Part shown: positions 1 through 207 of the stretch, piece after piece
Layout of the letters: the number at the start of each line of letters is the position of its first letter
How positions within the stretch are numbered: the stretch's first letter is position 1
NCBI RefSeq assembly: GCF_003334255.1
Contig: NZ_QOWU01000283.1
Direction: 5' to 3' (one strand)
Length of the DNA stretch: 207 nt
Origin: Escherichia coli
GTDB lineage: Bacteria; Pseudomonadota; Gammaproteobacteria; Enterobacterales; Enterobacteriaceae
Notes under the pieces: model-generated
What the model saw: only the letters and a program-made list of their open reading frames with translations
Database searches by the model: none
What the model was told of the DNA's origin: nothing
Translations under genes and position numbers: made by a program

Positions 1-207
1 CGTGCTGACTTATCTGATGGAACTTTACCAGATGGATTTTGCTGAACTTTCTGAAGCAGTATCCACACACTATCCCAGCCACAAGGGGGTGATCATGACG
101 ATAGCAGAGCAACTGGAAGAGAAAGGTCTGGAGAAAGGTCGTGCTGAAGAGCGCTCCAGATTAGTGCTCATGATGAGACAAAAGGGAAAATCTCTGGAGG
201 AAATCAA
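1..207 (+). CDS. Partial CDS (internal fragment, codon phase starts at base 2): C-terminal region of an Rpn-family (YhgA-like, PDDEXK_7/Transposase_31) recombination-promoting nuclease; paralog not assignable
   Basis: Frame starting at base 2 is open across the window (68 codons), translating to VLTYLMELYQMDFAELSEAVSTHYPSHKGVIMTIAEQLEEKGLEKGRAEERSRLVLMMRQKGKSLEEI. + strand frames 1 and 3 hit stops early (TGA at 43-45 and 42-44). The MTIAEQL start followed by a charged tail with G-spaced repeats (EEKG-LEKG-R) matches the Rpn C-terminal tail as I recall it. Family assignment is from memory, not from a database search. Confidence 0.7.
83..91 (+). promoter_or_regulatory. Internal Shine-Dalgarno / ribosome-binding site for the ATG at 95
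   Basis: AAGGGGGTG differs from the consensus TAAGGAGGTG core at one position (G for A, still able to G-U pair with the anti-SD). It is the only SD-like purine run in the window placed correctly before an ATG. In the host frame it encodes K-G-V. Confidence 0.45.
95..207 (+). CDS. Candidate nested in-frame small ORF (RpnS-like intragenic antitoxin / C-terminal tail protein), 3' end beyond window
   Basis: In-frame ATG at 95-97 is preceded by a strong SD (AAGGGGGTG, 83-91), leaving about 5 nt between the AGGGGG core and the ATG. Product would begin MTIAEQLEEKGLEKGRAEERSRLVLMMRQKGKSLEEI. Internal translation starts producing small tail proteins are described for E. coli rpn genes. Whether this start is used cannot be shown from sequence alone. 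Confidence 0.4.
   Translation, partial: MTIAEQLEEKGLEKGRAEERSRLVLMMRQKGKSLEEI
119..142 (+). repeat. Tandem direct repeat, 2 x 12 bp (GAGAAAGGTCTG / GAGAAAGGTCGT), in-frame, encoding EKGL-EKGR
   Basis: Seen directly: positions 119-130 and 131-142 are identical at the first 10 of 12 bases. Each unit is four codons in the coding frame, so a unit gain or loss would keep the reading frame. Confidence 0.6.

Follow-up and report, generated by a model that had tools for sequence, protein, structure and literature searches.

The ATG at positions 95-97 of the window, by which we mean the whole 207-nt stretch of Escherichia coli DNA analyzed here, is preceded by the Shine-Dalgarno (SD) sequence AAGGGGGTGATC (positions 83-94, plus strand), and together the two are very probably the translation start of a 66-aa RpnS-type protein that corresponds to the C-terminal domain of an Rpn (YhgA-like PD-(D/E)XK) nuclease. 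Zhong et al. (2023, PNAS, PMC10400941) reported that every E. coli rpn gene has an internal translation start from which a small C-terminal protein, RpnS, is produced, and that RpnS is an antitoxin against the toxic long nuclease, RpnL. By homology, we infer that the window allele is translated and that its product has antitoxin activity and an anti-phage function. In the mechanism that we propose, 30S subunits would be recruited straight to the SD, whether the mRNA is the full-length rpn transcript or a shorter one, and the small protein, made separately, would bind RpnL through its long first helix and so block the toxic cleavage of DNA. The locus would then be a gene-within-gene toxin-antitoxin and anti-phage module, in which the number of four-residue repeats (encoded at 119-142) may tune which RpnL is neutralized. 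In the genomes that match the window at 100%, ATG95 would be the effective primary start of a stand-alone copy of the RpnSs type. The mechanism is already known, having been published in 2023, and no new question is opened by finding it here; the RpnL/RpnS arrangement is extended to an Rpn lineage that is carried by an integrating conjugative element (ICE) and is present in ~1% of complete E. coli genomes, and what appears to be a genuine gene-within-gene start was picked out from raw sequence alone.

The reading frame and its start codons

A single frame is open through the window, from position 2 to position 207 on the plus strand, and reads VLTYLMELYQMDFAELSEAVSTHYPSHKGVIMTIAEQLEEKGLEKGRAEERSRLVLMMRQKGKSLEEI; the remaining two plus-strand frames are closed by 3 and 7 stops within the 207 nt. 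What the open frame encodes is the C-terminal portion of a protein of the Rpn family. Genomes with 100% identity have it within a 122-aa stand-alone tail ORF (L001 4927-5295, L001 being the locus of strain 2015C-3121), and in 99.5%-identical genomes it corresponds to codons 215-283 of a 311-aa Rpn gene (L002 4360-5295, L002 being the locus of strain S19-651). The preliminary description had placed five ATGs at 17, 32, 95, 170 and 173 in one shared frame, and these coordinates are right, as are the upstream strings that it cited for the ATGs at 17, 32 and 170/173 (CTTATCTG, TTTACCAG and TTAGTGCTC, all exact); it overlooked the two in-frame GTGs, GTG89 and GTG164. From ATG95 the window holds the first 37 codons of the small protein (95-207, MTIAEQLEEKGLEKGRAEERSRLVLMMRQKGKSLEEI...), whose stop codon lies at L001 5293-5295. 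The end of the product falls 88 nt past the end of the window, and that the frame continues so far was beyond what the earlier reader could see. The only complete ORF listed in the window is a 45-aa antisense frame (70-207, minus strand), which begins with TTG and lies opposite the region coding for the small protein. An antisense ORF one unit shorter occurs in the other copy, and no evidence suggests that this frame is a gene.

The Shine-Dalgarno sequence at ATG95

For each possible start we calculated the duplex energy between the 20 nt upstream of the codon and the 9-nt 3' tail of 16S rRNA (ACCUCCUUA). ATG95 reaches -11.8 kcal/mol against this tail, compared with +0.6 kcal/mol at ATG17, -3.3 kcal/mol at ATG32 and +0.4 kcal/mol at each of ATG170 and ATG173, which agrees with the earlier statement that ATG95 is the sole ATG of the frame to bear an SD. 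Upstream of ATG17, 16 nt lie inside the window, and its energy is unchanged when the full genomic context is used. The in-frame GTGs give -2.1 kcal/mol (GTG164) and -6.4 kcal/mol (GTG89). GTG89 was tried as an alternative start and rejected, since the SD abuts the codon and leaves no spacer.

The sequence AAGGGGGTGATC is the reverse complement of GAUCACCUCCUU with one G.U pair replacing an A-U pair, so that 12 contiguous pairs can be drawn. It is encoded by the codons Lys-Gly-Val-Ile, and its GGGGG core (85-89) is separated from ATG95 by a spacer of 5 nt. Against a 13-nt tail the energy is -19.6 kcal/mol, a value that may overstate the effect of the SD, because the 12-bp duplex runs to position -1 and may be unable to form completely once the start codon occupies the P site. 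A background set of 50 annotated E. coli genes holds 324 internal in-frame ATGs, and not one of them reaches -11.8 kcal/mol (minimum -9.8, mean -2.6); only 4% of annotated true starts do so. When the peptide P-S-H-K-G-V-I was re-encoded by synonymous resampling under E. coli codon usage, an energy of -11.8 kcal/mol or better was obtained in 2.9% of draws (P = 0.029). The strong SD at ATG95 is more than chance. The accessibility of the mRNA is uninformative: the cost of opening at ATG95 is 9.2 kcal/mol, about one standard deviation better than the local mean, and it is similar to that at ATG170/173, from which ATG95 is not separated by this measure.

Homology with RpnA and the K-12 paralogs

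In a BLASTP alignment, the full-length (311-aa) protein is 37% identical to K-12 RpnA over 299 aa (E = 2e-65), and HKGVIMTIAEQL pairs with HKESLMTIAERL of RpnA. ATG95, which encodes M246 of the ICE-borne protein of 311 aa, is aligned exactly with RpnA Met244; the SD codons, K-G, correspond to RpnA K240-E241. At the level of DNA, AAG GGG GTG ATC ATG here falls on AAG GAG AGT TTA ATG in rpnA, and ATG95 is therefore the positional homolog of RpnA Met244. In both genes the SD occupies codons -4 and -3 and the small product begins MTIAE, with the 12-nt SD here at -11.8 kcal/mol against AAGGAG at -8.5 kcal/mol in rpnA. The combined changes K240R, E241D and M244L in rpnA abolish RpnAS (PMC10400941). 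The column of the start Met is invariant across all six lineages aligned, K-12 paralogs included, and in rpnA, rpnB, rpnC, rpnE and the rpnD pseudogene the homologous Met carries the best SD of its gene, at -7.4 to -10.8 kcal/mol.

The other in-frame ATGs behave as ordinary internal methionines, as had been proposed. All four are without an SD, and those at 17 (17-19), 32 (32-34) and 170 are unconserved in the K-12 paralogs; the first of these is unconserved even between near-identical copies, being Leu in the stand-alone copy of L002. At 173, RpnA, RpnB and RpnE have Met too, and the adjacent pair at 170-175 lies in the first helix of the AlphaFold2 model described below. The alignment with RpnA Met244, together with the conservation of the ATG and its SD, supports the earlier proposal of a designed internal start at ATG95 from which a single nested product would be made.

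The membership of the long protein in the Rpn family is clear from its domains. The full-length gene that carries the window at 99.5% identity (L002 4360-5295) scores 115.7 bits against TIGR01784, for which the cut-off is 52.1, and matches PF04754 (Transposase_31, YhgA-like) over residues 12-205 with E = 3.4e-59. The 122-aa stand-alone ORF is without the nuclease domain and aligns to TIGR01784 at positions 184-272 only, with 31.6 bits, under the cut-off. Residues D65, E85, H86, Q87 and S88 (D...IEHQS), known from the literature as catalytic residues of the nuclease motif, show no variation when aligned with RpnA, RpnB, RpnC and RpnE. Toward the C-terminus, the Pfam matches of the 311-aa protein are weak (DUF433 with E = 0.018, MerR-DNA-bind and HTH_68). 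DUF4351 (PF14261), which annotates the separately encoded RpnS genes of some species (PMC10400941), is not among the domains found with E <= 10 in the Pfam scan of this protein, a point in which it differs from those genes.

Conservation across species and among E. coli copies

A scan of species-representative genomes returned 80 Rpn genes with 35-44% identity, mostly from Enterobacterales and with a few from Betaproteobacteria; even the best relatives in the representative genomes of other species are only ~40% identical. An ATG is present at the homologous column in 79 of the 80, the exception being a truncated ORF, and in 55 of these 79 genes it has strictly the strongest SD of the gene, where 8.2 would be expected by chance. 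The mean SD energy at the homologous ATG is -7.4 kcal/mol, compared with -2.2 kcal/mol at 725 other internal ATGs (Mann-Whitney p = 9e-41, a value that overstates independence, the homologs being related). The residues encoded at codons -4/-3 vary (KE, GD, EE, GE, ED, EG, RE, QE, KG) while the purine run is kept, with a purine at each of positions -12 to -9 in 77 to 79 of the 79 homologs; where codon -4 encodes Lys, it is AAG 28 times and AAA twice. Judged from the aligned sequences, the pattern across homologs is one of apparent selection at the nucleotide level.

We also compared 12 copies of the region from six E. coli strains. All 12 keep AAGGGGG...ATG and an intact ORF from this ATG to the stop, and the products have 61, 62, 66, 70, 74, 77 or 85 aa and fall into two tail types. 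Upstream of the ATG, the full-length genes have 338 open codons in frame, compared with 59 in four of the six stand-alone copies and 13 and 28 in the other two. A small ORF that stays intact despite a broken upstream frame points to the unit starting at ATG95 as the target of selection. The exact 66-aa protein is already present in NCBI as an independent protein, and PGAP starts the stand-alone gene of NCTC9112 at the homologous ATG. In that copy (L088 1569-1593, equivalent to window 70-94), one nucleotide has been deleted from the SD spacer (AAGGGGGGATT ATG); the spacer is one shorter, the SD still reaches -11.0 kcal/mol, and the upstream frame is closed 13 codons before the ATG.

Genomic context

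Of 5,426 complete E. coli genomes, 53 contain a match to the window, and every one of these matches is chromosomal; a search of PLSDB plasmids, distant mode included, gave no match; the sequence also has no match in Rfam. The rpn locus lies between ssb and a PilL-domain gene (L001 1-10207), and nearby genes encode topoisomerase III, a STY4534-family ICE replication protein, a TIGR03759 protein, a restriction endonuclease and TraD. From topoisomerase III, the STY4534-family protein, TIGR03759 and TraD around the locus we conclude that the element is an ICE.

In S19-651 the window is matched at 99.5% identity as the 3' part of the 311-aa Rpn gene. Matches at 100% occur only in 2015C-3121 and STEC2018-553, where the window lies in the 122-aa ORF (L001 4927-5295) annotated as 'transposase'. 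The 3' end of the full-length rpn gene has been partially duplicated in tandem to give this ORF, which lies downstream of that gene and of the gene's intrinsic terminator (L001 4886-4906); the terminator occurs a second time after the ORF. What ATG95 is nested in, in the 100%-matching genomes, is a remnant ORF, not a working long gene. The tandem duplication spans L001 4886-5347 (the window being L001 5001-5207) and, at a further locus, L091 2381-3215, with a period of ~441-454 bp. In addition to the tail, the duplicated unit takes in ~170 nt left over from the upstream coding sequence, as well as the intrinsic terminator (ACGCCTGCCTTGTGCAGGCGT, then a T run), which is present twice.

The annotated GTG start of the 122-aa ORF lies 168 nt upstream of ATG95 and has no SD (-2.8 kcal/mol), compared with GGAGG (-10.2 kcal/mol) at the true start of the full-length gene; in a 100%-matching genome, ATG95 is thus the one start of the 122-aa ORF to be equipped with an SD. 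The annotated GTG starts of this ORF and of its 117-aa counterpart in S19-651 are probably longest-ORF artefacts, and the two 'transposase' annotations probably have the wrong start, the real product being one of 61-70 aa. Both GTGs (L001 4927, which is 74 nt upstream of window base 1, and L002 5368) are without an SD (-2.8 kcal/mol) and are found ~15 nt after the T run of the terminator. The names given to stand-alone copies vary and include transposase, hypothetical protein, DUF433 domain-containing protein and RpnC/YadD family protein. Upstream of ATG95, a sigma-70 consensus scan of 240 nt found 0 sites, and the best score of a PWM promoter scan of the same 240 nt was 6.9, less than the mean of 8.1 for shuffled sequence; these scans would miss a promoter that is weak or does not depend on sigma-70.

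The predicted small protein

The product read from ATG95 is the 66-aa protein MTIAEQLEEKGLEKGRAEERSRLVLMMRQKGKSLEEIKDFLDLTDEQLLQALDYVPVQRNGALNQD. An AlphaFold2 model built with 49 homologous tails predicts helices at residues 3-29, 34-40 and 45-53, followed by a disordered end, with a pLDDT of 75. RpnAS is a three-helix bundle in the crystal structure PDB 7TH0 (PMC10400941), and the three predicted helices with a long first helix agree with this description, as far as a model can. Against the PDB, Foldseek gave no match with E < 0.69, and 7TH0 was not among its top 50; its best partial matches are helix-turn-helix domains, with TM ~0.45 over ~33 residues. A phmmer comparison of single sequences gave only a weak similarity to 7TH0 (E = 0.53, residues 1-51 against 1-47), and a profile matches 7TH0 with E = 1.2e-14, a profile, however, that contained RpnAS itself. 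The top PDB matches of the profile (designed PPR, ankyrin and 'Pizza' repeat proteins) were set aside as artefacts of a repetitive helical profile, none having an individually significant stretch. PADLOC 2.0 has no model for the long protein and gave only a chance-level DpdH match for the small one.

The hypervariable four-residue repeats of RpnS begin 8-20 residues after the initiating Met (PMC10400941). In the window, two 12-nt units, GAGAAAGGTCTG and GAGAAAGGTCGT, occupy positions 119-142 and encode E-K-G-L and E-K-G-R, which begin at residue 9 of the small protein, inside the reported range. Within each of the two tail types, the lengths of the E. coli products differ by four-residue units at this site, the number of units ranging from one upward among the copies. 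Tandem Repeats Finder reports nothing at 119-142, because two 12-nt units are below its threshold.

Alternative explanations

It has been proposed that elongating ribosomes pause at strong SD-like sequences inside genes, and the SD here is unusually long, two points that could suggest a pause or frameshift-type element acting on ribosomes that translate the long gene. We consider such a role extremely improbable, given that the SD stands at canonical spacing from an invariant ATG and is retained in stand-alone copies in which no translation of a long protein passes through it; it is, moreover, followed by no slippery sequence or alternative-frame ORF, the other two plus-strand frames being closed. 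The SD-like run and the ATG could also be by-products of coding constraint on the conserved K-G-V-I-M-T-I-A, with no initiation taking place. The MT[IL]A motif is indeed conserved in the protein, and its Met could be structurally needed in the long form, but the variation of the residues at -4/-3 under a retained purine run, the choice of AAG for Lys against the usual preference for AAA, and the small fraction of synonymous encodings that are as strong all speak against this account. When the corresponding site of rpnA is mutated, the small protein is no longer made (PMC10400941). This account is very improbable and is already largely refuted.

More serious, and still unlikely, would be a silent copy with intact start signals, a decaying partial tandem duplicate without a promoter of its own, in which ATG95 and its SD are the fossil of the site in the full-length gene. 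The terminator directly upstream of the duplicate, the lack of any promoter candidate above chance, and the visible decay of the upstream frame in the stand-alone copies would all fit with such a fossil. Against it, the SD and the ORF from ATG to stop are intact in six of six stand-alone copies, two of which have a broken upstream frame, as expected if only the small ORF is under selection, and in SCU-171 the copy has been duplicated again. The analogous stand-alone copy of K-12, ypaA/RpnESs, has been detected as a protein (PMC10400941). A weaker-than-consensus promoter inside the duplicate is also plausible, because the rpn genes of K-12 have internal transcription start sites (PMC10400941).

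Comparison with known systems

With ATG95 read as the start of an RpnS-type protein, the nearest described counterpart is RpnAS/RpnAL of K-12 rpnA (formerly yhgA), with which the ICE-borne gene shares the families TIGR01784 and PF04754. In addition to the homologous internal start, a four-residue repeat region in helix 1 is common to the two small proteins, and three helices are predicted for the one described here. They differ in length, with 66 aa here and 49 aa in RpnAS, the protein described here having a 13-residue C-terminal extension of low model confidence; the long proteins are only 37% identical overall, and the window gene resides on an ICE, whereas rpnA occupies a core chromosomal site.

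The stand-alone RpnSs copies of K-12, ypaA/RpnESs downstream of rpnE and RpnCSs downstream of rpnC (PMC10400941), are the same kind of partial 3' duplicate and provide a second copy of the small protein. Each lies directly downstream of a full-length gene and clusters with its own upstream gene, and the 100% matches of the window are of the same kind. Unlike these, the duplicate here carries the ~170-nt upstream coding remnant and the terminator described above, the stand-alone copy is present once or twice, and its repeat number differs from that of the upstream gene in 2015C-3121, NCTC9112 and SF-088. Outside the Rpn family, Cas11d, produced from within cas10d (cited in PMC10400941), likewise is one of two in-frame products, the short one coming from an SD-equipped internal start and interacting with the long one. 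The proteins are unrelated, however, and the short Rpn product antagonizes the long one and does not complete a complex.

Repeat number and a possible exchange of tails

RpnCS blocks only an RpnCL of matching repeat number (PMC10400941), and the locus offers natural variants for this rule, in which the numbers match or differ and the spare copy is single or double. Two repeat units are found in the downstream copy of 2015C-3121, which holds the window, where the upstream gene has one. The products of the downstream and full-length copies have 66 and 62 aa in this strain (L001 5095-5295 and 4665-4853), 66 and 74 aa in NCTC9112 (L088 1594-1794 and 1129-1353), and 61 and 77 aa in SF-088 (L089 1581-1766 and 1151-1384). 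In SCU-171, which has two identical stand-alone copies downstream of the full-length gene, all three copies are identical, with 70 aa. The mismatched downstream copies may be non-cognate, by analogy with RpnC, because RpnCS blocks only an RpnCL of the same repeat number.

The tail of the full-length gene of S19-651 is identical to the stand-alone copy of 2015C-3121 (L002 4360-5721 compared with L001 3930-5295), and a second, different tail type, ending ...MGMSTEVIKQALQLSDEQIREALHN, lies downstream of it in S19-651. From its sequence, the pair S19-651 and 2015C-3121 looks like a case of tail swapping by recombination between direct repeats. It is a tentative possibility, and one that we would not favor at present, that the stand-alone tails are recombination cassettes that switch the repeat number and the tail type of toxin and antitoxin together. 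A deletion between the ~440-bp direct repeats would then fuse the nuclease domain to a new tail, and until that happens a downstream copy with another repeat number would remain non-cognate, if a cognate repeat number is needed as it is for RpnC.

A terminator scan also flagged an inverted repeat of 11 pairs, GAAAATCTTTGATTTCCTCCAGAGATTTTC then CCTTTTGTCT, which runs from window 186-207 to L001 5215 (minus strand). It lies inside the region coding for the small protein, in both copies, and is probably incidental, because only 3 of its pairs are G-C and its T run is poor.
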